NCBI RefSeq assembly: GCF_964355755.1
Contig: NC_092678.1
Span: 2,744,422 to 2,808,421, forward strand
DNA: 64,000 nucleotides
Direction: 5' to 3'
Origin: Antedon mediterranea
Taxonomy: Eukaryota > Animalia > Echinodermata
This document shows positions 1-28,233 of the stretch, piece after piece (the first letter of the stretch is position 1; each line of letters begins with the position of its first letter). The notes beneath the pieces are model-generated. The model saw nothing but the letters and a program-made list of their open reading frames with translations. It had not been told where the DNA came from and searched no databases. The translations under genes and the position numbers were made by a program.

Positions 1-2443
1 TTCCATCCGCAAAATTATCATGTGCTGTTTTCGGTATGAATATTGCCCACCATGTCTCTCTACAGTAAAATTTCACCAGCTCTCTTCTCTTCTAAGTTGA
101 AGATGTTGTTAAGCTCCATCTTGTCTTGGTCCCAAGATCACTGCATTTGATGCAGTACATGCTCTCATTCACACCTTCAATTGTGCACTTTTAAGCATGC
201 TTAGCAGTTAAAGTGCTTATTAATCGGCAATATTTAGAAAAAAATTATGAAATAACATAAAACACAAGTCTGTATTAAAGTATACTATTTTGTTCAATAG
301 TGCTCGGGTGCAAAAAGCTACAGTATAACATGGACCTATAAATGTTCTAATTCAGTAAATGAAAATTAACTTCTTTAAACTATGAATAACCTCATAAAAT
401 ATTATGCGACAGAACATAGTCATTGAAAATAAACATAATATTTCATTTCCCGACCATTTACATTATGACTCATGTGTGATAGACAGGGAATATGACGAGC
501 AGGGATGTAAGGAAATAGACGGAGACATAATGTTTACTCCCTCTAATCATTGATAACATTCTTAGTTTTGTTTGTTTTTTGCCTTCATCGTAAGAATTAT
601 TAGATAATTAACGTGGTGCCTGGTTCAATTTCAATGATTTCAATGATTCAATGATTGAATGTAATGTTTTAACCTTGTACATTGATTATAGATGAAATGG
701 TAAAATGTACGCCCACAACCACATTATATCGACTTAGCATCGATACATTATACAATCTAATCATATATAATGTACTGTAACATTGCTTTCATGTACTCCT
801 GGTCTATTTGGTATGTTAAGTATTCTTTCAGTGTCTGTTTAATTTTTATGCAAGTGGCTAGACTCTTCCTCCTTGTCAGAGGAGTCCAAAATATTATATA
901 CTACAGCAAGTTCCGACCTATGCTTGTATCATATGCGTGCATCTTCAAAGTAAAAGATTAGTGGACTGGAAGCCAACTGATCGTACGATCAGTACGAAAA
1001 CTGATCGTACAAGATTAGTGACCTCCATAGAGTTGGCAATATCCTAAATGTTTTTTCTGATCTATATTAATTGCTTCCGTCTTTAAGATTAGTGAAATTG
1101 TAATAATTAATTTGTACTTTTAGAAACCTTTTTCATATAGTCTCTTCACGCTGTAGTTGGAGGAGTATCAAAATATGTCCATGGGTCTAAATAAAAAGAA
1201 CAATACATTTATTTAGCAATGGTTTACAGTATTTACCGTCAATAAATACTTTGTTTTGTTCGTTCATAAGACTTTGGTGTCAATCAAGTGGTCTGAATGG
1301 ACAATACTGCCCGAGGAGGTTTCTCTAAGTTTATCTGACAAAACAACAGTGGATTTACCTTTTATATTTCTATACATCAGTTTAGATTGACATGTGTTAC
1401 TTATATGATTGTGGTTTGTTATTTTTGTTATGATGTTGATTTTAGAGCTGTTTTTCCCTGCAAAGTAAAAAAAATAATGCGTAAAGAATTAGGATGAACC
1501 ATTATTAGTGGTACAGTTTTTTGCTGCAGTGACGTTTTTCTACGCATTATTATTGACAAGTTTCTGAAGCATCAATAACCATCACTTATACCCCCAATCA
1601 AACAATAGATTGATTTAATTTACTTTAAATTAATATTTATAATTTGAATATTTTGAACGTAAACTAGGCTCAATGTTCAATCAAAGAAAAGCCCTGGAAT
1701 CTAGAAAACACTTTCATTTCCTTTTTGTTCCTCCAAGAATTTGGATTTGACACTTCATAAAATAACTGGAATAATAAAAAAAATCTGTTATGATCATCAA
1801 GACTGGTTGTCTCCTTAACATAGCTAAACTTAATACAAAAAACATAACATTCCATTATTAAATAGATTATAATAAAATTACAATAAAAGGAGAATTCTCT
1901 TCTAATAATGAGTTGATGGGAAACTTGTTTTTTACTGTCAATTGAGCTTTGATGAGTAAGGTATTGGATAGTGCCAAAATGTTTGTCTTTGTATCTGTGA
2001 AATATTTAAGTTACATACATTATATTATTGTTGAGTGAGAAACTGAAGTTTCTATAAGTAGTTAACCATGTTTATTTATCAAACTATTTTGATAGGTAAA
2101 TACTAGAGTTTCTGTATTTTAAACAGTAAAATATTTAAATTGAATATGCAGCTGTTTTCAATTTATGACATTCTCTACTTCTTGTTCTCTTTGCCGCCCA
2201 CAAGAGACTGCTATGGGAAACATCAGATATAACATTAATTAAGTTTATATAATAAATCCTGATTCCCCGTAGGCAAGTCTTAACCACAATAGTGGATAAA
2301 GCCAAACATACATTGGCGGTCATAGTTTAAATTTAATTTATTTTCTGTTTATTCTAGGGATACTTTTTGTGTACTTATTTAACATTCTGTAATATTCTGG
2401 TTTTTTTTTTGACTGACCTGTTTGTTTACTCTTGTTTTTGCAG

Positions 2444-4858: not shown

Positions 4859-7800
4859 TTACCCTCCTAACTTCCATCCATTTATATAAAGATATATGTA
4901 TATGTATATAAATTTGTGTGTGTATATACATATACTGTGTAAACAAACAGGGAAAAAACCCAATTTTGTTTTTTTTTTGGTCGCTTTTATATTATTGCTT
5001 TTTATATATATGTACAGTCTAATTATGTATTTAGCTTTTAGATTATGGTATCTAAAACCAAGTAGTAACCATATTATTTAGTAAATAAGTAATTTTAAAT
5101 AACTGGTCATTTTACATGTGTTCAGTAGATGTTAATTGGCTGTTAATGAAAAGATAAGTTGCTGCAGAACTATTGTTTTACTGCAGTAACTGTACCCTGT
5201 GATACTTTATTATAACTGCTGCCCATTGTCAAATCCTTGCAAATATTTTTGAATAGTATTTACTCAATTGTTGGGGAGTAGAAATCGATTGAGGGGAAAT
5301 AATAATAACAGGGATAGAGAACTATGAATGGGTCATTAATTATCCCAGGCATAAAAAGAAAAGATGCACATTTTAAACCAACCCTGTGTGTCGTTAATTT
5401 CCAAAGACCATGTTATCACACAATGTCTTCCAAGCATACAACACCAAAAACTGGTTTATTCATTTTTTTTAACAACAACCAACCTGTCTTGATATAAATC
5501 CTTTTTATTAAAAAAAAAAGATGCATGTGTTGGTGGGCAGTCATGACAAGAGGGTTTAGTTCATTTTTATTGATATTGAAATATTTGATTGCGAGAAGGG
5601 CGTGGTGGGTTGCGGGTAGCACTCGCGTAAGGTCAGTTTTGGCAGATTCTGTGTAAAGTAAAAACACCTTGTAATTAGTGGTTGAGAGTTCAACATGTAT
5701 GAACAATTTTAATATGTGATCATTGTTGTTTTTAATTTAGGACATTTTATGACACCAATTGACAAAATTATGTATTTACAGTCGGAACAAATTTCACTAT
5801 AGCGTTCTCATTATAGTTTTTAGAAAACATGATCTTAAAAACGACATTACAATGTTTAGCATTTTTTGATATTTATAACAGATGTATAGAGTAGAATTTT
5901 GAGACAATCATTTGTGTTGCCATCATTATGAAAGACAGCTACAGTATATTATTTTAAGAGTTTTTGCACAGGGTTAATTTATTTGGACAATGCACTAGAG
6001 ATTGTATGGACTTTGTATTTCTTAAAACATTAGTAATTTAGTTCATCTCTTCAGTTTAGTCTCAGACTAGATTAAATCCTCTTTGTAGAAGAACATTTTT
6101 ACCCAGTATGTTCTGTCACAAAGGTTGTTTCTAAACCATAAGCCTCTAGAGGGAGTCATTCGATCTTCTGATGCCCTGTTAATTCTTTTGACATGGCCTT
6201 TTTATTTTAAACATGTGTTTATAAAGTACAAGACATATACACTGGCTATAATTAAATTTTACTTTATTTATATTAAGCTATAAAATATAAAAATGTTTTA
6301 GAAGTTTGATATATAAACCTAACCTTTTAAAAACAATTTTAAACACTTTTTAATAAAAAGAATTAAGCAGAATAGTTGTAAAGAGAAAAAAACAAAATTT
6401 CTATAACCTGCGTTTTATCCTGCTCAGCTCCATTTAATATTTACTTGTAAATAGAAGTTTAACCATCAGCATTGTCCACTTTTGTTTTGTATTGTATAGT
6501 GTTATTCCTTGCATCTCTACCACATCATCATAGATTTAGTAAAGTAATATTATAATATTCTTAAGAAAGTAAATTAGCCTACTAATACTGTACAGGCATA
6601 GGTAAGTAGGAAAATCAACAATTTCTACGTCGTGAGTTTAGAATATGTACATATAAACTGGGCTGATTTCAGTAAATATTTGTAACTATAATAAGAGTCA
6701 ACGTTTCTACCTTTCCATTGAAATGTTATATCTGAAAACAACTTATGAAAACATAATTTTTGTATAAATAATTGTGTTTCAATTTGTGTGGAGGAAAATT
6801 TACAAATTAAAGAAAGTGAAATATCAATTTGACTGAAATATCAGTCCAATTTGACTGAAATAGCAGTCCAAATTAACTACCGTTATCTATTTTTTGAATG
6901 TATGGTTACAATCGATTGTAGTAGTGGGGTGTAAGTAATATTACATTAGTGCGGTATTCAAATTTGAATAGATAGACACTCTTTGTGTACTGTTATAAAA
7001 TGTAATTAATATTACAGCAATAGAATCGGTTATGATGTCATGGACATATAACATTTTATGAGTCTCAAAGTTAATTGTGATATTTTAAATATTGTGCAGG
7101 TATTCTTACTTTTTATATTGTGTAGTTAAACTGTGCTACCTTCAATATTGGAATTTTTGGCTAAAAAGAAAGGAGAAAGCCTATAGATTTATAAGAGTGT
7201 GGAACACAGTTGTTTTTAAGAAGCCTTTGTTAGATATTTCTATAATGTTATAATTAATTTCACAATTCAAATATTGCTTAGTATTTGTAATAATTAGTAA
7301 GAAAAAATATGCATTATTGGTAAACAACGGCAACAGTACAATAATTACACACAGCGTGTTAATACAAGCATACCAGCGCTTTTGTGGGTGTTTATTTTTT
7401 ACGGTGTTTGCCTTCCATATTTACGCCTTTTTTTAGCTATTATCTGGGTGCTGTTTTTCATGTACAACAAAAAACACATCTTTTATTTGTGCAAGTTATT
7501 TTTTCCATCTCAACAGTGTTAATATTGTATAATATGTATAACAAATATTTGCTGCTGCACTTAACCAAGCCTCAATTACAACTGCGATTTAAATGTTAGT
7601 TGCCATAACATTTCTGAAGAAATATTAGAGAAACTGCATTTTATTTTGAAAAGAAAGTTTTATTCCATGTTGAAATTTTATTAGCGATTTTATCCATGTT
7701 ATTCACGTTATTGTTTTCTTATATTAATGTTTTATACTGTACAAGTTACTGAAATCATTTTGGGTAATCGTTTTGAAACAGAAATTAAAAATATTTGTTT

Positions 7801-8344
7801 GTAGCAAAGATATTAAACCTTGTTTGTATTTAAATAAAAATATTATAAAGTAGTTATTTTGTATGAAGCATCAAATTGGTTATTGGTAGTTTGTTTGGTG
7901 TATCAATTTGTTGTTGTACTACCTGGGATGGTTGGTAGTATTTTAAACAAATAAAATGTATCAGTTTAAAAAAACTGTAGTTTTCATTTTATAGTATTTG
8001 AAGTTCTTTTGTAAAAAAAATTTTCAGGGTTTTCTTTGGGTTTTTGTTGTGCCAAGGATACCCAGCATTGCAAATATAAATGTTCACCGTTTCACCAACA
8101 ATGTAGAAGTCATGAACTAGATCAATAGCATTTCCATTTGGTACAGAAATTAAGATTCACAATCTATAGGATAAGAAAGACAAATCTAAAAATCCTCAGA
8201 TGTAGAATACCAGGCCAGACTTTAAACTGAAATACTTATTGTACTAATTAATCGTCATTAATAAATAGAATGTTTGTACCGTTGTAAAACCTTATATTTT
8301 TAACTATTTTAAACTTAACTATGTAAATTATTTGGGTTTTTTGG

Positions 8345-8551
8345 GGGTTTTTTAGCCAAGGATACCCATAAAGCGAATTCATTATGTTTCTGAAAGATGG
8401 CAATCCATTCACAGGACAAACATATTACACACAAGATGCTCTACATATAACAAGCTTTTGATGCCAGACTGGAGGTGTTTTTGGTCAGCATTTGAACACA
8501 GGTTTCTGGGATTGGTAGGCAAGCATCTTCACCACCAAGTGACAAATCTAC
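8345..8551 (-). mobile_element. Degenerate tRNA-derived SINE, same family as the 48.5 kb copy
   Basis: Shares 'caggacaaacata..acacaagatgctctacata' and 'ggta..caagcatc..accac' with 48490-48693. Confidence 0.65.
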
Positions 8552-8637
8552 AGATTTAAAATAAAAAGAAATGACAATTGGGACAGGGAATAAATACTAA
8601 TATGTTTTTTGAAATTGTCAATTAAAAATTGAGGCAT

Positions 8638-9768
8638 GTACAGAATTGACATATTTGTATGTACATGTTTTGTTTACGACATTTCATTTCAAACAATGAT
8701 GAACTTTTCATAGGCATCACCGTAAAATTAACTATAGAAAAGTTGAATTGACTTTGAACAAAATTCCTCTGGGTGTGATAATTTGTGAACATAACTTGCC
8801 AACCCGCCACTATAAACATTTATCGAAAACAAACAAATTGCAACAGTCCTTTGTGACTGGAAAGAAATTGAGAGAAAGTAACACAATCCAAATGTTGTGG
8901 AATATTTGGAACATGATGTGGTGAACATTGGGTTTAATGTTTCCAAATCCTTTTATGGAACCTTTATATCATTTTGATTTATTTTCAATTATTTCAATTT
9001 GAAAACAAGGACAGTTCATCTCTCTACACTCATAAAGGAGAAGAAATCTACAAAAAGTACATCTCTACCCACAACCATTACATAAATATTAATATTAATT
9101 TTAAGTCCTCGTTTTAATTCTTTTTTGACATTTTAATACTGTACTTTTCCCTTTGAACAAAACTTTGCATGAGATATGACTACTTATTTACCTATTTATG
9201 ACCCATATTCCAGATATTTAAAAAAACTGGGTACCCTAAAAAAAGTATAGGATTACTAAACAGTATATTCCTAGGACTTATATTACCATGTATGCATGTT
9301 AATTAGTGAAATATTAGAATGATCTAATGTTGAAGTGATTACCAAAAAGTTGTTCCCTGGTATATCTAATTATAAATTAAAACCCCGCCCCCTCTCCAGC
9401 CTATCCAACAATCAGCCAACCAGCGACCATGCTGCTAACGTTTACAAAAGTCATCACCATATATGGAGTAGACTGTTCCAAACAATGCAAAAAGGGGACA
9501 GTCAATTTTCTGCCAACTTCTGTACCTAAAAAGACAATAAAATATCATCACAGTATTAATGTTTAAATATTTAAAAAGTATATATAATTAATACAAGTAC
9601 AATTGATATTAACAATAATAATTTTATCAATTTGAAAGTACTTAAAATTACAATATAAGTAACAATAAATGTTTTTTATTTTCTTCTCCCCTCTTTCAAT
9701 TTTCAGATGGTCCAACTCACTTCCGCCCACAACTTGACAGCGTGAAAATGTGCCTCTGAAGCAAAGAT
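8638..9768 (-). ncRNA. Putative spliced structured lncRNA 'B' (exon 1 about 9768-9721, exon 2 from 9526; 3' end not located)
   Basis: Donor GGAA|GTGAGT at 9721/9720 and acceptor TTTTTAG|GTACAG at 9527/9526. No credible ORF. Nested G-U-rich helices pair 9526-9389 with 8638-8867. Promoter blocks are shared with lncRNA A. Confidence 0.55.
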
Positions 9769-9849
9769 CGTATAGCGCCACGTAGTGGCGCAAGATATGG
9801 AACTGACGCTCGAAAAATGATAATTCCATGGGCAGCCATTCCGGCAAGC
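9760..9849 (-). promoter_or_regulatory. Composite core promoter, copy B
   Basis: On the minus strand: GCTTGCCGGAATGGCTGCCCATGGAATT (9849-9822), GTGGCGCTATA (9781-9771) and ATCTTTGCT (9768-9760). Confidence 0.7.
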
Positions 9850-11769
9850 GGATTACCCAGTAGGCAATGCGGCACGCCACCAAATCAATGTAAACAAATA
9901 GGATTTACATCTACGCGATAAACAGTACGACTTTATTTTATCTTTCGCGTCAAAATGAAAGAACATCTATATAAAATTCGATTATATAAATTTACTCCAT
10001 TTGATATTACACTTACATATGCGTATATCACTGTCCAACCTCAAACGGCTACAGAATAAACACTGACTGTATGGGGGACGAATTTTGTAGGCAGTCGGTT
10101 GAGGCATAGTTATAAATAGTGTCGCGGCGCGCAGCGCGATGCTACGCACTTCACGCCCAAGGTCGGCCGCCTTTGGCCTAGGCTGGGATGATGGCTTAGT
10201 TTATGTGCGAGAGAAGCATTTTTTTGGAGATGAATTGTAATAATTGCCAAATATATTGTCCAAAACTGTCTTTTTAATTAAAAAAAAAAAAATTTATGGG
10301 CAGAGGGATGTTCTTTCCCCTGTTCGGACCCTCTCTTTCTATTTTGTGTGCTTCAGGCCTACAAAGTTATTTCATTGCAAGGGGAATTTTACTACGATCT
10401 GCCACAACTGTAGTATACTGTACATACATTACTAGATACAAAAACAATTGTTACATTTTTTTAATTTCAAAAAAGTAAAAGTATTAAATATTAATTTTAA
10501 AAATTCATAATCATAATTTGTTCTTTTCAACCCACTTTTATTAGCTCAACTTTCAATATTACAGACAGGATTAAAATGCAATAAAAATACTGAAAAATCT
10601 CGCTTTATACAATATTAATAAATAATGGTGGAATAATTAAATACACTCAATAAATAAATTACGAATGTATGGTTTTAGCCTTCTTAAATACAAGGAAAAT
10701 TCTATTATTTTGATTTCTTGTATTAAAAAGAAGCCAATAGGCCTAAACAACAGTACTGATAATAACTGAATTCTGGTTATTTCCTTTCACTTTAAAGTAT
10801 GAGGTGTGTGAAAATAGTGATTTTATTTGTAATCCCATAGGATACTGCTCCTTTTCAAGAATCAAAAATATAAACTATTATTACTATTGGCCTTTGTATT
10901 TAATTCTTGTGTAAAATACCACTTTGCACTCAATCATCTATCTTCTCAATTTTACAGTATGATGACAGACATCTTTCTGAAATAGGGAAAAATATATCAT
11001 TAAATTATTTGGTCACTTTTCGAACTGTTACATAATCATTTGATTACAATATTATAGTATTTTAAAATACTATACATTTTTAAATTCAAAACAAAAGTCA
11101 ATAGCCTACTATTTATTAATATTGTAAGTATTCAAAAATGTTTACATTAATTAACTAAATATTTTTCAAATAAAGATGAAGAACAAAATAAATATGAGGA
11201 TCAAATTTATAATTTAAATTTATTAAATAAAAAAAAAACAAACAATAACATCCTCACGATTTTTTATTTCATTACATTTAATTATTTCTGTTAATGTTAT
11301 TATTAATAAAACGCTATATTGTCTTGTACATTTTTATTAAAAACTCCTAATTCCCGAACAGCTTCAGTTTTTTTCTTAATCTTCCATCCATCCAAGCCTT
11401 GTTTGATCCATCTATCAAGACGCCAATCAATATCATTCATCCTCCCATACTTTTTTTTATTAATCATCATACTAACTAAACTAGGCCTAGGCCTAGTATT
11501 CGGCATTAAATATGCCTACTAGGCATACTACTATCTAGGCCCTAGGCCTAGATCGGATTGCGCAGAAACGCCTGCCTGAACTAAATTTAAACAACAATTT
11601 AATAATTTTGTTAATGTTTACTAACAAAAAAATATATATTCTAAAAACTTACCACTACAATTTACCCAATACAACACGAGAAAACTTCCCGAACAAACAA
11701 TAACACGTCACACGTGGATGTGGTTCAATGGTTTATTATACACTTCCGGGGTATGTGATCGCGTAACTT

Positions 11770-11859
11770 GCTTGCCGGAATGGCTGCCCATGGAATTTCA
11801 CTCATGCGCAGTGTATAAGAGATAGGAGTTCCACGAAGTGGCGCTATAGTATCTTTGCT
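11770..11859 (+). promoter_or_regulatory. Composite core promoter, copy A
   Basis: The same three blocks at 11770-11797, 11838-11848 and 11851-11859, with the same offsets (+68, +81) as copy B. Confidence 0.7.
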
Positions 11860-12683
11860 CTGAAGTCTCCGATTATCGTCTGCTCATGCTGTGTGTACGT
11901 CGAAACTTTCGAAGTATTGTATGTGTGTCTTCTGAAATCGAACAATTTTGATGATATTACTTATGTAAGCTGGTTATTATGTTTATGATATCTATAAATG
12001 ATGTATAAGGGTTAATTATCTTAATTGTATAATCCTTTTACAGGAGTTTAGTGTAGTTTAGAGACCATTTTTTGCTAGGCTAGGATAGAGCCTAGGCTAG
12101 TTTAGCCTTGCCCTAGCTAGCTAGAGCTCGGCCCAGCCAGTCGCAAGACCTACCAAGGCTGGTGGAGGTTGTTCGCCTGCAATACTATGCTCACATTTTG
12201 ACGTTCTACTACTGTATTACTTTTTTATTGACTATTATGGCCTAGGCTATATTGCATTAATACAGGAACTTTTTCTTGTGTATAGGCTACAGCGATTTTC
12301 TTGGCTAGGCCAAAGAAAAGTCATGGTTGGTTTGGAACACGCTGCACTGGCTGGTGTGGTGGTGCGTTTGGACATGATGGGAAATGCAGTAGCAGTAGGC
12401 CTAGGCGCGCCTATGAATGATCAGAAACCTGAAAATGGGTAAGTCTTAGTTGTCTAATGGATTAAAGCAGGGTAAAAATTGGGTGACAGATGAAATTGTT
12501 CATGTTTTATTTTGTTCACGATAAAATCAAAATTCGGTATTTTATAAATTATATGGAGCTATCAGGTAAGTTTGATATTGGTCACGTTATTTGTATTGGC
12601 CGCCCTGTAGATACATTTTTGGTTCGGTATTGTTAAGTTTGCAGCTGTTAAACCATATGTTCATAATGTCTATAATTGTATTA

Positions 12684-13226
12684 CAGTAGAACCTGTGTTT
12701 TACGTACCCTGATTTTACGTTCCCTTGATTTTACGTACGCTTAAAATAACCGATGACGTCATCATTTTCTTACATTGAGGGTGCAATTTAACAACAACAA
12801 AGCACACAAAGCCACAATCATGGCTGTGTGTGGAATTCTGCTGTGTGTTTGAGTCAAGCTACGCACGTGCCATGGCACGTGCATTTAAGCAGCGACTGTT
12901 TTTATTGATAGAAAATACAAGAACATTGATATTTTACACTTTATTTAAACATCTCACAGCCTGTATATACTGTACAGTACTGTACTTTTCTAGTTAGGCC
13001 TCACATCTTGCTAGGCCTGCTAGCCTGGCCTGAATAGTCTAGGCAAGGCCTAGCTAGTGACAACCTGCATGCTGTTCAATACAATAAAGTAGACAAACCG
13101 GGTAGCCTTTATAGCTACGATCTCTACGTATTTGGGGTCAATATAAGGTCAACCTTGATTTTACGAATCCTTTGTTTTACGTACGCCTTTCGGTCCCGTA
13201 CCGTACGTAAAATGGAGGTTCTACTG
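12684..13226. mobile_element. Tc1/mariner (pogo/Tigger-like) MITE
   Basis: TIRs CAGTAGAACCT...AGGTTCTACTG flanked by TA, with subterminal repeats of 'gttttacgtac/gattttacg' at both ends. Confidence 0.85.
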
Positions 13227-13968
13227 TATATTAATTATTTGTTCATTTATTTTCAGACAGTCTTTCTTAGTGGTCTAACAAGAAGAAGATGGTGGTAAAT
13301 TCAGTATGATCCTGCCAAGCTGGCTTAACACAAACCTAGATTGACTGCAAATTGATGATACCACCAGCGGTGAGTTTAAAGCTATATTTTTTTTTGTCAT
13401 GTATATAACTGCATATGCAGTTAGTTTTTAAAAAAACCGAAGAATATATTGATATTGAGGGCGAGGAGGGTAATTTATCATTATCTATAGAGAAATGTGA
13501 ATAGTAGTTGGAAGATAAGAAGATGTTCAATTAAGACTAGAAGACTATTTCTACTACTAGTACTAGATGCTACTCAAGTTTCTTCTGCTGAAAATACAGG
13601 TATATAAAATAGTCAACTTGTTTATGATTATAAATAAACATGCGCATTCATTAAAGACCAGTTATAAACGTGAATTTCAGATATGAAATTTCGTTAAATA
13701 TACAAAAATAATTGTTGTCAGACTTAAATGTGGTCAAATATGGAATTTGGCCAAATTAAAAAAACCAGTCGGCCATTATAACAATAACTGTTGTCTTTCA
13801 ATAAAGTGATAACATTAACATTTTGTTTTCTTTTTTTAGCTTACGCAAGATTGGAGATGGGCAGCTTTATCTATTTATGTATTTATTTTTTTAAGCCGTC
13901 ATAAATTATAAATATAATTAATAAATAGTTAAAATAAATAGCATAAATTACCATTGTAATTAGCAAAT

Positions 13969-15277
13969 CCTCACTAGCAATGAACAAAGTAAGTGCAATT
14001 TTAAAATAATTATAAGTGCAAAAATATAAAGCATAAATGTTTTTTTTTGTTAATTGAAAAGCAACATTTTGTTTTCAAATTCTTAAAAAAACTAACTTTC
14101 TATTAATTTCATAGGGGTTTACTTGTCTCAGAATGTCAAGTGTAAATAAGCCCTGATACCATGGTTTTCATGGTATTCAAATTTACATTTATGTATTTCA
14201 ATTAATAATTAGTATAATTTAATGATTTGTTTTTGCTGGTGAGGTTCTTTTCTGTGTAAGGTGTATTAGCAAATCCTCATAAGCAATGAACAAAATAAGT
14301 GTACACCTTTTCGTTTACTTGAAAAACAAAATTTATTTTCAAATTTCATTTAAAAAAAATCAAATTTTACATAAATTTCATAGAGGTTTACTTGTCTCGG
14401 AATGTCAAGTGTAATCCCTGATGCCATGATTGTTTTTATTTTACATTTTTCTTTTCTTTCCGTTTTACATGGTATTAAAATTTAAAATGTTATACTTTAT
14501 AGCAAACAGTTGCATACAAATTTAATTTATTTAAATGTAAACATTTGTTTTTGCTAATGAGGTTCTTTTTTATTTTTCTCTTGGGTGCAATTGTAATTCA
14601 GAACCCCTCATTAGCAATGAATTTTGTCAATTGTCCTCCCAGATACCATTTATGTTTTATACATTTTTGTTTTTAAATGGTGTCGTAAAAATAAATGTAT
14701 TTCAAAGAAGCATATATTGTGTCTGCACAGTATGTATCAAAATTGTAAGTAAATTATGTTTGTTGGTATAAAGTTTGCGGTACACCACGTGTACTATTAG
14801 TTCTGAGTTGAGTTTCTCGACGCGAGGACGATGAAAGTATATTGATCGAAACGTCGAGAAACTCAACAGTTCTTTTCAGAACTAATACACGTGGTGTACC
14901 GCAAACTTTATATCAACATTTGATTTCGCCATGCAAACCTTAAAAAAATATAAATTATGTTTGCTAATGGGGTTCTGTTTGCTCTTGCCCTGGTCCTTCT
15001 GGTGCAATGTTTAGAGTTCAAATTGTGTACACTCATTAGCAATGAACAAAATAACTGTAATTTTATATTAATTTTTGGCTATTTAAAAAAATAATCCTGC
15101 AATAAAAGGCCATTTATATAATTTCAAATTTAATGTACCTACCCCTCAGGATGTATTCCCTTCTGTGGGTGTCAAGGAAATTGATACTATTTTCTATATT
15201 TTGTTCTGTTGTACATGGTATCGAAAGAAATTATTTAAAATTTAATACAAAATTGAAATTTGGTTTTGCTGATGAGT
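13969..15277 (+). repeat. Four tandem structured units of about 165-290 nt, each closed by a 12-bp stem
   Basis: Stems: 13969-13980/14233-14244, 14275-14286/14551-14562, 14606-14617/14961-14972 and 15031-15042/15266-15277. Each unit has an internal gat(a/g)c(c/t)at...atggt(a/g)t stem. Confidence 0.75.
14763..14950. mobile_element. Palindromic Penelope-like retroelement remnant with a degenerate hammerhead core
   Basis: About 55-bp inverted arms surround gacgatgaaagtatattgatcgaaacgtc. A 13-bp direct repeat TAAATTATGTTTG at 14750-14762 and 14951-14963 looks like a TSD. Confidence 0.6.
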
Positions 15278-15597
15278 TTTTTTTTTCTTTGTACAACTTT
15301 ACAAGTACTGTACTTGCGTGAATAAGCTGCCGTTTAAGAGAGTGCATACTTTGGAGATTCATGTTTAGTAAAAACATTCTATTTGTAAGCATTCTCTTTG
15401 AATTGCTCCTTTAGTACAAAAACATGTTTTTACTGCTTTTTGCCTATGGTTTTCCTACATCTCACAAAAATTTACTAATAATCTTAACATTATGAGTTCT
15501 TTTCGATAACATATATTCCTAAAAGTTGTCTACAAAATTGACGCAAGCACTATAAATTCTGCGTAATGATAGCAAGTACGGTAACTTGCATTATAAA

Positions 15598-15842
15598 AGG
15601 TGGGGGACATGGTTTAAAAAAGGTGGGGGGGGGGGGACATGGTTTAAAAAAAGGTGGGGGGGGGGGACATGGTTTAAAAAAGGTGGGGGGGGGGAGGGTT
15701 TAAAAAAGGTGGGGGGGGGGCATGGTTTAAAAAAGGTGGGGGGGGGGCATGGTTTAAAAAAGGTGGGGGGGCATGGTTTAAAAAAGGTGGGGGGGCATGG
15801 TTTAAAAAAGGTGGGGGGGCATGGTTTAAAAAAGGTGGGGGG
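15598..15842. repeat. G-run minisatellite, unit about (G)6-11CATGGTTTAAAAAAGGT, about 9 copies
   Basis: Directly visible tandem repeat with variable G-tract length, G-quadruplex prone. Confidence 0.9.
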
Positions 15843-17481
15843 ATCTATTTTAATTATGTAGGTATAAAATTGTTTTTAGCTGTGTTTGTTGATCACTTGG
15901 AATTGAAAAGAACCAATGGAAGGGTACCACACATTTTGATGATGTTAAATGGAGAGTTGCTGCATTATTTACAGATGGTTAAATGGTATGTCGCCAATAT
16001 TCAATCTTCATTTTGATTATAATTCATTGAATGTACAACTAGAATCGAACATTATTCTGCACAGTAAAGGAAAATGATGATGTTACCCTAAATAGTATCT
16101 GTAAAAACTAATATATTACAATCAATCAAGGTAGACAAGCCTAACCACTCCTGTTTGATACTCTGCTTGATTGAATTCATGATAACGGTTGAGACAGGGT
16201 AGCATAAAATGGACGCAAGAAATGCTTTTAAAACAACTGAACATTATTGAATAATTATTATGATTACTATTTATTATTGTATCTTTTTAGGTATGCACCA
16301 ATTGAAGACGACTTTCTATGAGAGACTTGGATCAGCCAGCAATTTCAAGATCAACAAACATTTACATATATAATTTCCATTGTAGAATTGTTCAGTGAAG
16401 TGGAATGAATCTTAATGTTCTTTAAATTTAATGAACAAAATTGACTAAATTGTAATTTTTGAAAATTATATATGAAAAACTTTTTCCAAATATTTACTAT
16501 TTCTTTATATTTTGTATCATTTTTCAAATATGAATAGCCTAAATTTTGTTTTGGCAATTGAACTTTTTGGATTTGTTTTGGTTTTTTAAACTTGAGTAGT
16601 TTTTTTTGTAATCACACTTAAAATTACAAATTTCAAACATAATTTTACATGATTTCGGTTGAATATTCTTATAATTCTATAAAATTGAATTCCACTTCAC
16701 TGTGTATATATTATATATTTATAGTTTATAAATGTAATTAGTTTCAGGTTTTTCGAACTCTAAACATTGTTACAAAAAAAGCACCCCTCTGCACACCCCC
16801 TGTGTGCTCCAACCACACCGATGGGTACCGGCCAGCTCGGCTGCACGGTGAATGCTTCTCGGGTCGTGTTCTTTGCTCCTGCTAATTGGTGAGTTTGTTT
16901 TGAGATTTTCTATGGAGGTTTTTGATACTTGTTTCATGTTCTATGTAATCTACATTTTGACCAAATGCTTGTGAGAGTCCTTTACAGTCCTTTGTGGTGT
17001 TGGCATTGTGGCGGTGGCACCATCATCAGTGTATGGGTTTGAAACTAGACAAATCAGGAGTTAAATAACCTAATAAACTGGTTTCAGTATGTTTTATGGT
17101 TCTGTTTTACAATTAAAATTTAATAACTCAAAAGACATTGCATGCATGTACAAACAAAAAATATTTTGGAACTTTGGTGGTTAGACAAACTCTGTGTGAT
17201 ACATTCCTCTTTGATCTGGCTAAGTAAGCAGGCAGGAAGTTATACAATACTATTCTCAAAGTGTGCTTGATATATTTATCTCAAAGATATGGTACCAATT
17301 TAATTTAATACAATCATATAATTTAGCTATAATCCTGTCTTTAAATTTAAAGTTGATAATTCACATTTTCACACATTACACACAATATAATTTATATTTT
17401 ACACTTTTTATATTTGCAACAAAAATATTAATATAAATTAGAAGTAAAAGTGTTTTTATACTGTTAGTATAATGTAAGAAT

Positions 17482-18388
17482 TGCCTGTAAGGGGCACTTT
17501 AAAACTTAGCTGCCTGTAAGGGGAAATTTAAAACTTAGCTGCGCGCCTGTAAGGGGCACTTTAAAACTTAGCTGCCTGTAAGGGGAAATTTAAAACTTAG
17601 CTGCCTGTAAGGGGAAATTTAAACCTTAGCTGCGCGCCTGTAAGGGGCACTTTAAAACTTAGCTGCCTGTAAAGGGAAATTTAAAACTTAGCTGCCTGTA
17701 AGGGGAAATTTAAAACTTAGCTGCCTGTAAGTGGAAATTTAAAACTTAGCTGCCTGTAAGTGGAAATTTAAATTTTAGCAACCTGTAAGGGGAAATTTAA
17801 AACTTAGCTGCTTGTAAGAGGAAACTTAAAACTTGGCTGCCTGTAAGGGGGAAATTTAAAACTTAGTTGACTGTAAGGGGAAATTTAAAACTTAGCTGCT
17901 TGTAAGAGGAAACTTAAAACTTGGCTGCCTGTAAGGGGGAAATTTAAAACTTAGTTGACTGTAAGGGGAAATTTAAAACTTGGCTGCCTGTAAGGGGAAA
18001 TCTAAACTTAGCTGCCTGTAAGGGGAAACTTAAAACTTAGCTGCCTGTAAGGGGAAATCTAAAACTTAGCTGCCTGTAAGGGGAAATCTAAAACTTAGGT
18101 GTCTGTAAAGGGAAATTTAAAACTTAGCTGCCTGTAAGGGGGACATTTAAAACTTAGTTGACTGTAAGGAGAAATCTAAAACTTAGCTGCCTGTAAGGGG
18201 AAATCTAAAACTTAGGTGTCTGTAAAGGGAAATTTAAAACTTAGCTGCCTGTAAGGGGGACATTTAAAACTTAGTTGACTGTAAGGAGAAATTTAAAACG
18301 TAGCTGCCTGTAAGGGAAATTTAAAACTTGGGTGCCTGTAAAGGGAAATTTATAACTTAGGTGATTGTAGGGGGAAATTTAAAACTTT
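17482..18388 (+). repeat. Tandem array 1, about 31 copies of a 29-30 bp unit (AAAACTTAGCTGCCTGTAAGGGGAAATTT)
   Basis: Directly visible. Copy number estimated from length divided by period. Confidence 0.95.
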
Positions 18389-18878
18389 GCTTTAATTTAT
18401 GAAGTAGATTTGCTGACCATTTACAGTACTCTAATTTTTTGTTGCAAATATAATAAAAACAATTTTATAAATACATAAATTAAACTCTGCATAAATGCAT
18501 AATTTATTTTGGTTCGCACAAATTCAAGGAGAAGTCTCATTGAGTATTTTGTAAAGCATCATTCATCATTCAAATGTATTTTCCACCAAAACAAACAACA
18601 ATGATAAATTACTGTAGCTAGGAATAGTTGTTTTAAAAAGCATTGATTGATTTAATTAACATTCAAAAATAAATTAAATGCACTCTTTTAGTGTCCTTAT
18701 AATTTGAATGAAGTTTCAAGTAGGATAAACCAGTTGATACAGTATGCAATAGGCAGACTAATAATATAAACTTTATTTGGGTGATGTAAATTATTTACAG
18801 CATTGACAATTTAATGCTTTGAATAGTTAAATTTAATAAATAAATTTAGGTGTATTTTTTATGTTTACGTCAGTTCAA

Positions 18879-19648
18879 TTTAAAACTTAGCTGCCCGTAA
18901 GGGGCTTTTAAAACTTAGCTGCCCGTAAGGGGCTATTAAAACTTAGCTGCCCGTAAGGGGCTATTAAAACTTGGCTGCCTGTAAGGGGCTATAAAAACTT
19001 AGCTGCCCGTAAGTGGCTATTAAAACTTGGCTGCCCGTAAGGGGCTTTTAAAACTAGGCTGCCCGTAAGGGGCTTTTAAAACGTAGCTGCCCGTAAGTGG
19101 CTATAAAAACTTAGCTGCTCGTAAGTGGCTATTAAAACATAGCTACCCGTAAGGTGCAATTAAAACTTAGCTGCCCGTATTAAGGGGCTATTAAAACTTA
19201 GCTGTCCGTAAGGTGCTATTAAAACTTAGCTGCCCGTAAGGGGCTATTAAAACTTAGCTGCCCTTAAGGTGCTATTAAAACTTAATTGCCTGTTGGTGAC
19301 TTTTAAAACTTAGCTGCCCGTAAGGGGCTGTTCAAACTTAGGTGCCCGTAAGTGGCTATTCAAACTTGGTGCCCGTAAGGGGCTATTCAAACTTTGTTGC
19401 CAATAAGTGGCTTTTATAACTTTGCTGCCAGTAAGGGGCTATTCAAACTTGGGTGCCCATAATGGGCTATTCAAACTTAGGTGCCCGTAAGGGGCTATTC
19501 AAACTTGGGTGCCCGTAAAGGGCTATTCAAACTTAGGTGCCCGTAAGGGGCTATTCAAACTTTGCTGCCAGTAAGGGGCTATTCATACTTTGCTACCAGT
19601 AAGTGGCTATTCAAACTTTGCTGCCAGTAAGGGGCTTTTAAAACTTAG
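18879..19648 (+). repeat. Tandem array 2, about 27 copies of a 28 bp unit (AAAACTTAGCTGCCCGTAAGGGGCTATT)
   Basis: Directly visible. Same orientation and core as array 1, with a different 3' end of the unit. Confidence 0.95.
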
Positions 19649-20803
19649 TCACCAATGAGTGGTGAATTTATACTTAATAATATAATTTAATTAATATAAT
19701 TTAATTAGTATAATTGAATTACATTAAATTGAAATTGTAGCTTAATAGTTTGTTTTGGTTGAGTTTATACATACAGTGGTCTACACACAGTGAACACAAC
19801 ATGCACACAGTTGGTTACTACAAACATTAATAATAATAAAAAAATAAACAAACTTACACTAAAATAAATAATGGCTTCTCTTAAGATAGGAATAGTTGGT
19901 ACCGTATCTGAAGGGTAAATGAGTTGGGCAGTATAACAATTACACTGTGCTGTCCTGAAAACGAAGTCGTTGGGTTTGGTATTACCAGAGAGTCAACCTT
20001 ATTAAATTATATAATCCAAATTATGTACTGCACAATTTGTTTTCTTGAGCTAATTATAGGCATCAAAATTATTGACATCTAATTTTCGGAGACCAGTTTG
20101 GCTTTATTTTCCACAACAAGATTGGTTGCGTTTGTGTCGTGCGAAGCTATGACAAGCTTTGTTCAACATAAATGCGTCTAATTTGATGTTTTGGGAATTT
20201 AGTCTTAGAACCTTTTACCTTTTTTTTACTGTAAATATTAATATAAAATAACCTTTTGGCTAATGATATAGTCGAATGGATATCAAAACTACACAAATAT
20301 CAAATTCTATTAAAAATCATTTGTTTTTAATATATTATTTTATTAATAATGTTTGTTAAATACAGTATTAGTTCAATATCTAAATTTTAATATAAATATA
20401 TATTCAACTATTAATTCCTATGCTCACATATGCATATAATTCCACTCCTGAGAACGTCCGGTGTGCCCAGGGCGATTCCCTCATGTGTCAGCGTCCCTGC
20501 ATTGGAGTATTGGGTTCTCACTTGTGTTAAATGGTTTTTCTGTAGTTTACATTGAACTTTAATCGTTTTCGATTGAAGCTAGTGTCTTTGACTTTCTAGA
20601 TGTCTTGGAGCATTCTTGCAGCTTGGTGGTTGTGGCGGACATGACTTGGGGACATATTCAATGTGTAGTTGTGTGGGTTAACACTCATTGGTGTAGTGGG
20701 GCACATAGGGGGTGTTGCAGAGGGGTGCTTTTTTTTTGGCTCGAAAAATAAACACCACACACAATGTACATTTGTTTGTCTTTTATTAAAGTGGCTGACC
20801 ACC

Positions 20804-21137
20804 AACCGCCAGAGGGCGCCCTTTAAACTACTAGCCACAATGTAGAGGGCGCCCTCATCCAATAAAAAAAATCGGCGTAGGAGTCCCTACAGAGCCAATT
20901 TCCAACCAGATGAGGGCGCCTTTCACACAAACAACACTATAGAGGGCGCACTCCCATTAAAAAACGCCCTCACAAACGAAAAAAAAAATTGGCGTAGGAG
21001 TCCCTTACGAGACCTTTTTCCATCAGATGAGGGCACCCTTTTTGCCAATCACAATATAGAGGGCGCACTTTTTATAGAACGCCCTCATTTAATACAAACG
21101 ATAGTGCCACTTTTTTTTACGCCAAATGAGGGCGCTT
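20804..21137 (+). promoter_or_regulatory. Cluster of CTCF-like (A/T)GAGGGC(G/A)C motifs, partly within a roughly 120-bp duplication
   Basis: CCGCCAGAGGGCGCC at about 20806 fits the CTCF core, and six further partial copies follow. Confidence 0.5.
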
Positions 21138-21624
21138 TCCAGTGGCAGAAAAAGTAATCATTCATTCTACATACCTGTTACTGTTAGCCTTCTTTCTAGC
21201 TGCCAGTACAGCAACTTTTTTTCTTACCTTTACAAATATGCCTACCACTCTACCGCAATTAATAACAATATGCCTACCACTAAATAATAATTATATGCCT
21301 AAACTAAATCGTGTGAATATCTTAAAAGTATATTATCATATGCCAACCAGATTAAACAGTTTTAATAGATTAGAAAATAATAAAATGTGAAATCAGACGA
21401 TAAACAAGTATACATGCCTACATGACTAAAATACAGCATAGAAGATGTGAAATCAGATGATAACATGAAGTATATATATGCCTACCAGACTAAAATATGT
21501 GCAATCATAATGAACAGTTTATAAAAATAAATGCAAACAATTGATGCAATGCTGAAATTCATATGCCTATGACTAAAGATATAATATGCCAATACTAAAA
21601 CTTGAATAAAGTTAAAAAATAGAC

Positions 21625-24435
21625 ACAACACAGGGATTAACTTTATTGAGGTTAGGGCTAATTACAAAGACAATGGCAATCAGATGGAGCAGCTGGATCG
21701 CGGATGATTATGTTGGAAATAGTAGATATAGTTGAAATTCTCTGTACTATAGTACAGCGATTTCCAAAAAAATGGACAAAAGGGCTGTTATATGTGTCAG
21801 TCAAATGAAACTATATTTTGGTGCAGCTGGTGAAAATATATGGTCATGAAAATGTAGCTTTCCACACAAAGAATACTTCATTAAAATCAAGTTTCCAATT
21901 CTGTTTCACCTGAAAGATAACAAAATATAATAAATATTTAATTTTTAGGATTTGTTTTTCTGCTCCTTTTGTTTTGTACACACCTTATTTGAGTTCAGTG
22001 CCAGTAATAGAGTATTTGATATAAATGCTTGAGTGCATCACCAGATGTGTTATGCAAATTTTATGTAAATTAGAACTTTGCATGCTTGAGCAATGTAAGT
22101 TCATTTGGCATGTGTAGCTTGTTGTGCAAGGACACAGCATGGAAGGCTAGTACAATGGTTTATAGGAGCTGACTTAAGCCTGTACTGAAAGGCTTACTAA
22201 GCCTGGAGCTGACACAAGCCTGTACTGAGAGGCAATTACTAAAGTCTAGAACTGACACAAGCCTGCTCAGACTGAGAGAGTTATTAAGCCTGGAGCTGAC
22301 TCAAGCCTAGGCTTTACCTAGAAGCTTGTCTGCGGTTGACTGTAGCAATGAGGGACAGTCAGAAGGAGGTGAGTTAAAATAGAAATGTAATATAAGAGTT
22401 TACCATATAACAATTTTGTGTCTGTATATTTATGATTGCTTTTTATTAATATTGAATTAAAATGATATGTCATTAAATTTCTTTCTTTATAGAGATATAG
22501 AGATTTTTAAATAAATTTTGGTTATAATAAAGAGGGTGGGTGCTTTGTTTATTTAAAGTTAGGCTGGGCGGAATCTACACCCCAGTAGGATTACATAAAT
22601 CAAGCACATGCTATGCTAACATGTTATTTGAAAATTTTATGCAATTTCTTAGTTAAAAATAATGATTGATTCCGAAAGACTGCTCATCACACAAGGGTAA
22701 TTTGCGTCAACTACACCGGACGCTATAGAATCCGTTGTGTTTTTACTTTTTTTAAACTTTAGTTAGGCTGGGTTCAAAATTTGGTGTCCAACTGCAAGTC
22801 ATTTTGTATTTTAAACTAAAAACCATCGAACCTTACATTACCTTTCGTGTTTAGCTACAACAGCTGATCTGTGTTATCATCTAATCTTTATCTGGTTAGA
22901 AGAGTTCCTGAAAAATATTTTGAAAAAAATTATTTTAAAAGTGATCAAAAATATTCAGTAATTCATAACAAATAAACATGTTAAAAAAAAAAGGAATGCA
23001 CTATATTGAAATTAACTGAACAGACTCATAGATGCTTTATTGAGTTATTCAAAATTAGAGGGAGCTGTATACATTAGGACCAATTTGGACGTTGCGCACT
23101 TAAAGTCATAATTAATTGATAATTAGTAGTTTTTTAATTAATGTAGAATAACATTTTTATTTGATATGCCATTTAAGTGTAGCCATGCATAACAAATTGT
23201 AGGCAATGTTTTATAATATTCAACATACCATCATTTTTTTTTCTTTATAAACTGTGATTCAAAAACATACTTCTAGGTAAAAAAGTGATGTTGAGTGTCG
23301 ATGTAGTTCCTGCAAGATTTAAGAAAAATAGTATATTAAGTGATGATATATCTGGTACAATTATTTGCATATTCAAGGTTTCAGTTCAGGATGGAGCTAT
23401 AATTATTATATTACCCACAGCATTGTCATTTTTTCAGTAATTTTCCTTTGGATTTATATATCTTTATCGTTTAAAATTAATTAATTAAATTTCAGTATAT
23501 CACCGGGCAGTTTAGAATTAATGTACTTTGCCTAATGTGTCGATATATATATTTATTTCTGGCTGTTTTACTTATCGTTTTGATTTAACTTTTCGCTTTT
23601 TTTTTTGTATCTCCATTGAGATCCAGCCACTGATACCCACAGCATTGTCATTTTTTCAGTAATTTGCCTTTGGATTAATATATATTTAGCCTTATTATTT
23701 ATTTTTTATTCAGTAGATTTCGTATTGAATACATAATTATTTATGCCCACTACACCAGTACTTATACTATTTTAATCATAAAGCAAACAATTTTATAAAA
23801 TAATACACTTAACTTAAAACTTACTCATAAAATGTCAAAATTATGACTTCTCAGATGTGTCTTCTTAGTACTTTGTCATACCTGAAAATAAAAGATGATA
23901 GTTAAAATCTAGAATGCAAAATTTAAAAATGAATATGGTATGATTAAATTGGCACTTTCGGCCTTTCCCCATTCATATTAAATAAAATTTATTATTTTAA
24001 AAAATAAAATAATTTTTATACAAACTATACTCAGTACCCTCATTTGAAAATAATATTCTATGAATTGTGACAGGTGTGAAGATATTCAAATGTGTAGGGA
24101 TACCCATTGTGTAGGCCTATTAATAATGGAACCATTAACGCGAATGGTGTAGCCAAGCAACAGGGCCTAAGTACGTACTTCGCACTGCACTGGCTGGTGG
24201 TGGTGTGCATCCATCGAACGTGGAAGAGGCCCTAGCGAAGCACCACTTTTATATTAATTAAACTGACGTCTACTGATGTTATAATAATCTTGCATGACTT
24301 TTAAAGATGTACATATTTATATTATATATTTTTTGCCTTCTGTCAAATCAGTAGGCTTATTATACTTACTTTTATTATCGTTTTTTGATGGTGGAAAAGT
24401 CAAGCAGCAGAGGGTCCGCAGCAGAGAAAAAAAGA
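21625..24435 (-). ncRNA. Putative spliced non-coding transcript 'C' with an oligopyrimidine start (exons about 24435-24370, 23881-23826, 21909 to about 21625)
   Basis: Minus-strand CTTTTTTTCTCT start, AAAA|GTAAGT donor, TTTTCAG and CTTTCAG acceptors, TGA|GTAAGT donor and AATAAA at about 21647. No ORF. Confidence 0.45.
22167..22310. repeat. Degenerate tandem repeat of about 40 bp (GGAGCTGACACAAGCCTGTACTGA...), about 3.5 copies
   Basis: Directly visible. Confidence 0.75.
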
Positions 24436-25770: not shown

Positions 25771-28233
25771 ATGAAAGTTAATATTCCAAAATATATGCAG
25801 CTTTTCCGATGTTTATCAAATCTTCGAAAAATGAGCAAATCTTTGACTTATGATGCTGAACAGATCTTTGAGGTATCAGTCAATTCTGTCCTCCCGCACC
25901 AGATGGTCAAACGGTCACTACTTGTGGATGGCAACAGACTAGTAGTGGATGGATGTAGTTACAGTATCAACCACAATGTTCATATGGTTGGTTTTGGCAA
26001 GGCTGTTATTGGGATGGCAGCTGCTGTTGAAGAGATTCTTGAAGAACATCTGGTTCAGGGTGTTGTCAGTGTGCCGTTTGGTATCCAGGAATCTTTCAGG
26101 GCTTCTGGTCGGAGGTAAACTATTGTCTATATAAATTAATCCTTAATCTTAATAAATTATAAGTTATTACTTTGTACATTATTTTGGATAAACATTTTAA
26201 ATGAATTGATTTGAATTTAATACAATACTATGTTTATTTAAGTAACAGTTTATTGGGATATCATGATTTAAATTACTTTCTTTTATTTCTTTAGTGACCT
26301 ATTATTAAAATTGGAAAGTAAGGTCAAAGTAGTAGAGGGAGCTGCAGATAACCTTCCTGATGAACCTGCAATGAATGCTGCAAAGGAAATCGCGTCAGTG
26401 GCAGAAAATGTTGGAGAAGATGATATTCTGATTGTTTTGATATCAGGTATGTTGAATTATCCAATTCGATATTCTTTAATAGCATACTGTGAATTGTTTC
26501 TACAAAAAAAAAAACATATTTCAGAAAGAAAAGCATTTAGTGCATAAATCATAAAAAAAAATGTTTTAATCTTTTGGTAGCCAGTATATATCTTTGTTAC
26601 TTTTTGACAATTTTTCTTTCAATATGCATCTCACTAAAATGAATCTTTATTAGTGAATGTTAAGAATGAAGGGATTGTAAACTGATTGTTTCTGTTGCAA
26701 CACCCTGATCGCTTGCTTCAAATAAATAAGTGGGAAAAAGCTAAAGTCATTTGGCCAGTTTTCCTTAAAAAATCATCTTTACTATTAAACACAATTATTT
26801 TTGAAAATTTAAATTAAATAGGAGGTGGTTCTGCTTTGCTTCCGTTGCCTGTGGATCCTGTAACACTAAATGATAAGCTGCAAGCTACCAAAATTCTAGC
26901 AAGGAGCGGTGCTACAATACAAGAACTAAATACAGTCAGAAAGAAACTGTCAAAGTTGAAAGGTGGTGGCCTGGCCAGACTTGCAAAACCTGCCAAGGTA
27001 AAGAAATCAAGTTTGGTTTGGGGTACAACTTTATGCAATTTCTATAAATTGATAAACGATGAGCCAATATGTGGTGTGAAGGCAATTGACACAGTCTATT
27101 GACAATGCAGCAAATTCATCATTTCCTATCATCAATGCATTGTTTTCCAGTTGTTTCTTGGCAACATGGACAACTTTATTTTAGACACAGAGTCAACCAT
27201 GTCAATAAAAAACAGACATGGTTGACCATACTGACAGTCTATTCCATACTTTCTACCTCAACTAACCTAAATAAATGTTTTTAAATTTGTTTAGGTAATC
27301 TCCTTTATTTTATCTGATATCATTAACGACCAACTGGACATGATAGCTAGCGGACCAACTGTTGCAGATGCATCAAATACAAATGATGCACTTGCCATCA
27401 TCTCAAAGTTTGGTGAAGAGACTTCAATGCCATCATCAGTCATGGATACGTTAAAAGAGGCTGCTACAAAACATCAAACCAACAGAATAGAGACAAATTT
27501 CTCTCATGTTCAGAATGTTATTGTTGGCAGTAACAAGATAGCATTGCAAAGAGGTTGTGAGAAGGCTCAAGAGCTAGGCTATTATCCACTGATAATGTCT
27601 TCAGGAATTCATGGGGAAGCAAAAGATTTAGCAGATGCTTACTGTAATCTCTCCATGTTGATTGGACTCTTAATGCAGTATAGAAAATCGGTATTGTCAT
27701 ACAAAGGCATTGAGTTGAAACTGTTGGATAGCATAAACATATTGTCTAAATTTGGTGTCTCTAAATCTTTTGGTGGTCATCTTCTTGAATATATTCCATC
27801 TGCAGATAAACCTCTTTGTTTACTAGTGGGAGGAGAACCCACTGTGACATTAAAAGGAAACGGTAAAGGTGGTAGGAACCAGGAGTTAGCTCTTGCTGCA
27901 GCTGTTCATTGGCAAACAAAATCGGTGGAAGACTTAGCCTGCAGCAATACGTTGACAGCAGGGGATAGAGTGAAGACCGGCTGCCAAATGGTGTTGTTGA
28001 GTGCTGGAACTGATGGACAAGATGGGCCTACAGATGCTGCTGGGGCTATAGCTTATCCGTCCCTGTGTAATGAAGCTAGAAACCTACACCCTCAAGAATT
28101 TCTTGATAATAATGATTCATACTCTTTTTATTCTACATTTAACGATGGAATGTATTTGATAAAAACTGGATTAACTGGTACCAATGTTATGGATATACAT
28201 ATTATGCTTTTCAGTCCAAATACTTCACAATAA
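25771..28233 (+). CDS. GLYCTK: Glycerate kinase (MOFRL/DUF4147 class), exons 25771-26114, 26295-26446, 26822-26997, 27295-28233
   Basis: Motifs GFGKA, LISGGGSAL, KGGGLA, GGEPTV...[20 protein letters not shown] and TGTNVMD. The GT-AG junctions keep frame. The start ATG is uncertain. Confidence 0.95.

Follow-up and report, generated by a model that had tools for sequence, protein, structure and literature searches.

Why should two arrays of short tandem repeats lie inside a set of nested inverted repeats in non-coding DNA? This question is raised by a locus of the feather star Antedon mediterranea, which we analysed within 64,000 nucleotides of contig NC_092678.1 (assembly GCF_964355755.1, forward-strand positions 2,744,422 to 2,808,421; this whole stretch is called the window, and positions are counted from its first letter). 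Both arrays are enclosed by a 4-kb non-coding stretch with complementary ends, hereafter the element. An earlier note, made from the letters alone, had read the repeat units as GNRA-capped hairpins displayed inside closed stems. Here, we describe a long outer duplex whose mismatches are strongly one-sided, and we consider which kind of RNA might account for both the duplex and the arrays.

An outer duplex with one-sided mismatches

The earlier note missed a 54-bp inverted repeat (16774-16826/20683-20735) that brackets both arrays. When aligned strand-neutrally, with both kinds of transition scored alike, this repeat lengthens to about 225 bp per arm, and its arms are about 65% identical; we refer to this outer duplex as rod A. 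Read on the + strand, positions 16775-16999 form 142 Watson-Crick and 45 G-U pairs, against 5 A-C, 21 U-U and 0 A-A mismatches. These counts are stable under six aligner settings. Inward of 17000 the alignment is symmetric noise and was excluded from the mismatch count.

Neutral decay predicts near-equal numbers of G-U and A-C, so the ratio of 45:5 argues against it. In neighbouring + strand sequence, G*T/A*C is 1.4-1.5, and a G-U share of at most about 60% is therefore expected; against a skew of 0.60, the observed ratio has a p value of 3e-6. Within the arrays themselves, substitutions show no such bias (13:11 distinct changes; Fisher p 0.002 against 45:5). Taken together, 27 control inverted repeats in the window give 84 G-U to 70 A-C and 47 U-U to 48 A-A, with a few small ones leaning to one side (e.g. 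5:1 and 8:3). Rod A has a predicted energy of -239 kcal/mol on the + strand and -135 on the - strand (shuffles -102 +/- 6), and its uninterrupted helices measure 20, 17, 16 and 12 bp. Inside rod A, six of six read differences give the pairing base (among 40 of 844 differences listed). The wobble bias is probably a mark of selection for a long RNA duplex.

Nested within rod A is a second duplex, rod B (-108 kcal/mol; z -9.3 on the + strand and -4.6 on the - strand), for which seven mismatched partners used as controls gave z values of -0.4 to 0.3. Rod B itself shows no G-U bias (20:16). Further inwards, the 17-bp stem described around array 1 is indeed perfect and extends to 18 bp, whereas 500 shuffles of the 100-nt flanks reached at most 13. 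The two shorter pairs reported beside it, AAATTAG/CTAATTT and TACTGT/ACAGTA, were both found, with CTAATTT sharing 2 nt with the stem arm. The bracket proposed for array 2 (TTCAATTT/AAATTGAA) is present, but no better than chance (z 0.0 for the duplex on the + strand); the longest perfect match between the 100-nt flanks of array 2 is 10, which 70 of 500 shuffles matched. A different candidate closer of the array-2 domain comes from the 4-kb minimum-energy fold, with 1 of 60 shuffles doing better. There is no detectable homology between the flanks of array 1 and those of array 2. The idea of arrays inside closed stems is thus borne out in outline, chiefly by rod A and within what is likely a + strand RNA, and the predicted 4-kb fold is a rod ending in a junction that carries two array domains (Table 1).

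Table 1. Features of the element and its 3' border (positions in the window).
Feature	Position	Strand	Details and basis
Rod A, 5' arm	16774..16999	+	Weaker pairing to about 17061 and out to about 16728
Rod B, 5' arm (second nested duplex)	17126..17341	+	Duplex prediction
Perfect 18-bp stem around array 1, left arm	17408..17425	+	Pair probabilities mostly >0.95
Array 1	17482..18391	+	29-bp unit, 31.0 copies, 85% matches, block duplications; Tandem Repeats Finder
Perfect 18-bp stem around array 1, right arm	18436..18453	+	Sequence
Candidate left closer of array-2 domain (weak)	18539..18572	+	4-kb minimum-energy fold; z -2.8
Array 2	18880..19648	+	28-bp unit, 27.4 copies; Tandem Repeats Finder
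Candidate right closer of array-2 domain (weak)	19656..19678	+	4-kb minimum-energy fold
Rod B, 3' arm	19882..20049	+	Duplex prediction
Side hairpin, G-U rich, 92 nt	20107..20198	+	8 G-U to 1 A-C; z -4.3 on +, -0.3 on -
Rod A, 3' arm, with candidate adenosine-to-inosine (A-to-I) site 20695	20495..20735	+	Alignment, reads
Candidate polyadenylation (polyA) site AATAAA, then U/GU-rich tract	20747..20752	+	Sequence; would end RNA near 20770

Short motifs are retained in the units

The two arrays are present as described, with about 58 units (31.0 + 27.4 copies). Their consensus units agree at all but one of the first 22 positions and form one unit family; the unit pattern has 48 matches in the window, all within the arrays and all on the + strand (0.01 expected). 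In both arrays, the best-kept 4-mers are AAAC, AACU and ACUU of the linker (88-95%) and GUAA (84-95%), and UNAAAC is present in 52 of 59 linkers. The best-kept parts of the unit are hence the linker UNAAACU and GUAA, not the G/C stems, a pattern that would fit short sequence motifs better than hairpins.

We also scored the hairpins unit by unit, using 25 of the 27 array-2 units (length 28) and 22 of the 30 array-1 units (length 29); the rest were dropped for indels. The array-2 consensus folds into the proposed seven-pair hairpin with P 0.31 (-7.6 kcal/mol) but favours another register, whose loop has 5 nt (-7.9, P 0.51). The array-1 stem has 3 bp (-2.1 kcal/mol). The claim that the units form GNRA hairpins did not hold up: all pairs are kept in 6 of 25 array-2 and 15 of 22 array-1 units. 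In array 2, pairing survives in 13 of the 49 variant cells, or 7 of the 18 distinct changes, against a random expectation of 17-33%, and stem columns are more variable than unpaired columns (0.14 vs 0.07). In array 1, 11 of 20 variant cells stay paired (22-44% expected). Aligned as the earlier note suggested, the units thus vary nearly at random with respect to pairing, an outcome that the note itself had named as refuting its reading. The loop fared better than the stem; GNRA is kept in 21 of 22 array-1 and 21 of 25 array-2 units, but stem pairing is not conserved. Array 2 has two two-sided changes and array 1 has one, which occurs in two copies of a duplicated block. In the folding ensembles, GUAA is closed with a mean pair probability of 0.076 (22 sites) and 0.095 (29 sites), and the 4-kb fold closes 8 of its 52 GUAA as tetraloops. 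Array 2 folds much like its shuffles (z -1.11; 3 of 20 as good).

GTAAGT occurs in seven places, and a reading of the arrays as U1 sites was not supported. Scans of metagenomes with the unit and with the outer arm gave 0 matches.

Copy number and transcription

Reads from four sets (X3, X5, X6 and X10) were placed on 5000-23900 and kept as contigs, so depth is a rough guide. Judged by heterozygous sites, one haploid copy corresponds to a depth near 290 in X3 and to one near 50 in X6. At 85% identity, the rod A arms have about diploid depth (447 and 650 in X3; 115 and 167 in X6), while X3 bins with dispersed repeats range from 17,000 to 1.1 million and true repeats nearby are 30 to 1900-fold. 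The arms look single-locus in two organisms, and the element is therefore no common satellite. For the units, depth summed over the arrays comes to 36 diploid units in X3 and 19 in X6, compared with 8-11 simulated for one locus. As contig depth is a poor measure of copy number and the estimate rests on it, this gives roughly 2-4 locus equivalents at most, from one to a few loci or from longer arrays. The copy-number check raised by the earlier note thus comes out in its favour, as the unit is not a common dispersed satellite. A non-autonomous transposon of 5-20 copies was considered and rejected; the depth of 290 is haploid, the high depth at 19655 comes from array units and the arms are single-locus.

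Organism B (X6) has the two arms and the spacer as well as units from each array; organism C (X10) has pieces of both rod A arms and of rod B at low depth. Contigs of X3 and X5 pass over 35 bp of the spacer (18815-18849), which the window has as an allelic insertion.

The depth of X5 is 309-403 over the dystroglycan 3' untranslated region (UTR) and drops to 8-17 just past its end, and the high depth of DNA reads on the window's 2-kb transposon is missing from X5; for these reasons we treated it as RNA. Within the element, its depth is 25.8 on the 5' arm, 24.4 on the spacer between the arrays and 37.6 on the 3' arm, and the arrays are also covered. Outside, it is 7-8 between 15 and 16.3 kb and 0.2 between 22.0 and 22.7 kb. 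RNA-like reads therefore cover the spacer, which agrees in outline with the RNA presumed by the earlier note. At 20695, an A>G difference makes up 37.6 of 37.6 of the X5 cover and none of that of X3, X6 or X10. The site is a UAG opposite CCA, which is given as the most efficiently ADAR-edited context (10.1101/605972); a preference of ADAR for UAG is likewise described in PMC11334849.

Within 20600-20640, depth at 20620 is 569 in X5 and 1836 in X3, far above neighbouring arm positions (37.6 in X5 at 20661), and single-locus in X6. This excess would be a short match to other, seemingly expressed sequence.

A rod-folded RNA with repeated binding sites?

We regard + strand transcription together with folding as probable, and would give a scaffold function on top of these an even chance. 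As a whole, the reading that we favour is tentative and falls somewhat short of even confidence: the locus may encode a nuclear, edited, rod-folded long non-coding RNA (lncRNA) whose arrays serve as repeated single-stranded binding sites. Such a + strand lncRNA would be at least 4 kb long and run through both arrays. In vivo, it would fold as predicted into a long imperfect double-stranded rod, with the two arrays hanging off the rod end, mostly unpaired, as repeated protein-binding sites. The rod could have arisen by inverted duplication, or a defunct foldback-type transposon could have supplied it with its long terminal repeats; the arms would since have been kept paired as + strand RNA. ADAR would edit the rod, the edited duplex would retain the RNA in the nucleus, and the arrays would gather many copies of a sequence-specific RNA-binding protein.

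Several observations weigh against this reading. Splicing from 16889 to 20600 could remove the arrays. The A/T columns of array 1 all vary little (0.033), which may explain the retention of the motifs, at least in part; the units also spread by block duplication, and a search for selection in unit variation found no sign of it in the arrays. In organism B, the flanks diverge by about 6-7% substitutions, compared with 4-8% for ordinary intergenic DNA. That X5 is RNA is a guess, and its contigs give no strand, ends or level. The A>G at 20695 may be an allele, X5 being another sample, and X5 has no clear excess of A>G (39 A>G and 29 T>C over 19 kb). Two of the six rod A variants are the window's own allele breaking a pair.

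Other explanations give the duplex or the arrays a different role. The locus might resemble a hairpin RNA (hpRNA) gene, in which the rod does the work, being processed by Dicer into small RNAs, with the arrays riding along in its loop. This would suit a signal of selection found in the duplex and not in the arrays, as well as the uninterrupted helices, and the excess of X5 at 20620 might then be a related expressed sequence; Drosophila hpRNAs are described as young inverted-repeat transcripts (PMC12697358). We nevertheless consider it rather unlikely, given that no complementary target was found within the window, that the arms, at single-locus depth, have no close third copy matching most of their length at 85% identity, and that the rod has many U-U mismatches. 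A neutral relic of a foldback transposon is less probable again. Such elements, sea urchin ones included, have long terminal inverted repeats with internal tandem repeats (PMC4079207), other inverted-repeat elements lie in the window, and both the turnover of the arrays by block duplication and their depth of 2-4 times the single-locus simulation agree with a relic. Its decay should, however, have left near-equal G-U and A-C, as in the controls, and the arms are single-locus in X3 and X6. No transposase domain was found by Pfam in 17 of the 18 ORFs (open reading frames) of at least 45 aa inside the element. Nor is there a convincing target-site duplication, as two 6-mers were all that turned up for the homology and both lie within it; the candidates for array 1 are low-complexity AT, and old age could erase a true duplication.

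Pairing of the arms might instead act in cis, as a bridge in the precursor RNA that loops out the arrays and steers splicing, back-splicing into circular RNA or the use of polyA sites. Inside rod A lie two splice signals rated good on the + strand, one a donor (16889) and the other an acceptor (20600), and the AATAAA at 20747 directly adjoins its 3' arm. No splice joint at 16889/20600 is among the 15 of 269 joints listed, and X5 covers spacer and arms alike, which makes such a bridge quite unlikely. Least credible, and in our view very improbable, is the earlier note's own version, a multivalent surface of about 58 GNRA-capped unit hairpins. The kept GNRA, a consensus hairpin that can form, the three two-sided changes and the pairing kept in array 1 speak for it, but pairing in array 2 falls in the random range with paired columns varying twice as much, the array-1 stem is very short, and few GUAA close as tetraloops in the 4-kb fold.

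If the rod-folded lncRNA is real, it joins in one deuterostome RNA a selected long-range duplex and short-motif arrays, which are usually found apart, and the locus would be easily targeted with a single repeat probe. The mismatch-asymmetry test, which reads strand and pairing selection from one genome, could be applied to other unannotated inverted repeats.

Genomic setting

The element lies in a 20-kb non-coding gap between dystroglycan (encoded at 2417-4855) and glycerate kinase (an ORF at 27340-28230, with 100% identity to the Antedon mediterranea protein). The Pfam search covered 26 of the 72 ORFs of at least 45 aa within 11.8-24.6 kb, plus two ORFs outside, and returned no family above the cut-off in these except the dystroglycan domains of the control. 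A comparison with proteins of 57-184 residues found no homologue of the ORF at 12125-12439, where X5 cover is near nil. Rfam covariance models gave 0 matches in the window at the gathering score, and for the element there was no match even with E allowed up to 1.

The side hairpin at 20107-20198 has the size of a microRNA precursor and is found at about 4-5 loci by depth in two organisms, with no Rfam match. Several contigs cover 20160 in X3 and X6. A T>C there was scored as a break in the unreliable inner alignment, but it turns a G-U into a G-C pair in the side hairpin.

Beyond the 3' arm, a mirror polyA signal lies on the - strand at 20782. At 20747-20790, polyA signals on both strands thus stand back to back, each with a GU/U-rich downstream tract, and the base skew flips there. 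This layout suggests two convergent transcripts, the second coming from the side of the glycerate kinase promoter. Just outside, 20812-21135 holds seven GAGGGCRC motifs (the window's only + strand copies) and three reverse copies, which resemble the CTCF core or transposon subterminal repeats.

Upstream, 13960-15280 contains three full and two partial hairpin modules on TGCTAATGAGG / CCTCATTAGCA, at near single-locus depth; every one folds better on the + strand, none has an Rfam match, and they are possibly a further repeat module of the same upstream transcript. Nearer the element, 15591-15842 is a G-rich 24-bp minisatellite, which we take to be G-quadruplex-like on the + strand. An X6 contig skips 15631-15841, and the minisatellite seems to be short or absent in organism B.

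Other mobile or repetitive DNA is also present. A 2.05-kb element at 9762-11838, with terminal inverted repeats of about 100 bp and about 30-55 loci by depth, is likely a non-autonomous DNA transposon; an X3 joint from 9786 to 11838 skips its interior, and its one tested ORF has no Pfam match. Short repeats of very high copy number (hundreds to thousands of loci by depth) lie at 14743-14912, where they have perfect terminal inverted repeats, and at 23412-23718. An origin of the locus from a Helitron 3' end was also considered and was not supported.

Comparison with known systems

Literature on Antedon transposable elements, echinoderm lncRNA and double-stranded RNA (dsRNA), and non-coding RNA of A. 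mediterranea yielded nothing on this locus. As most subscription papers and the genome annotations lay outside this search, the locus may already have an automatic lncRNA model. For crinoids, the literature searched contained no structured lncRNA that bears repeats in this way. The most ambitious version of our reading is an undescribed crinoid class of rod-and-loop lncRNAs, in which a wobble-rich, ADAR-edited stalk of more than 400 bp would go back to an old inverted repeat and bear two cassettes, each with its own closure, that together hold about 58 single-stranded motifs. Binding and editing of dsRNA would in this way be coupled to multivalent protein capture. We consider such a class doubtful.

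Repeat-rich scaffold RNAs are a described class (PMC7151548), and the RNA proposed here would act in the manner of repeat-enriched architectural RNAs (PMC7151548, PMC9032817). Like the architectural lncRNAs hsr-omega, Firre, PNCTR and meiRNA, and their cytoplasmic analogue NORAD, the feather-star locus is apparently single, non-coding and rich in copies of a short motif. Its linker even matches the UNAAAC hexamer given for fission-yeast meiRNA (PMC7151548), probably by coincidence. It differs from them in its 28-29 nt units (those of hsr-omega are 280-nt tandem repeats), its two arrays and the nested imperfect duplex of more than 400 bp around them. A test for likeness to hsr-omega found no three-unit heat-shock element in the window; one of 16 two-unit matches lies at 16661.

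With the Drosophila hpRNAs, precursors of endogenous small interfering RNAs, the locus shares a long imperfect inverted repeat, a non-coding setting and, as far as seen, restriction to one lineage, but its loop is about 2.5 kb long with direct-repeat arrays and its host is a deuterostome. Foldback elements and those like miniature inverted-repeat transposable elements (MITEs), such as Tetris, sea urchin TU and pearl, also have long terminal inverted repeats, no coding capacity and internal tandem repeats. Here, the repeats lie between the arms in one orientation rather than inside them, there is no target-site duplication, and the arms are single-locus, diverged and strand-biased. We assign the locus to none of these classes (architectural RNAs, hpRNAs or foldback elements); the tests for hsr-omega, for MITE or foldback elements and for a common satellite all came out negative.

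Inverted Alu pairs offer a last comparison, being edited inverted-repeat RNAs. Like them, the feather-star locus has a long-range duplex near the 3' end with a candidate A-to-I site. Its arms, unlike theirs, do not derive from an abundant dispersed family, and they seem to have been kept paired by selection.

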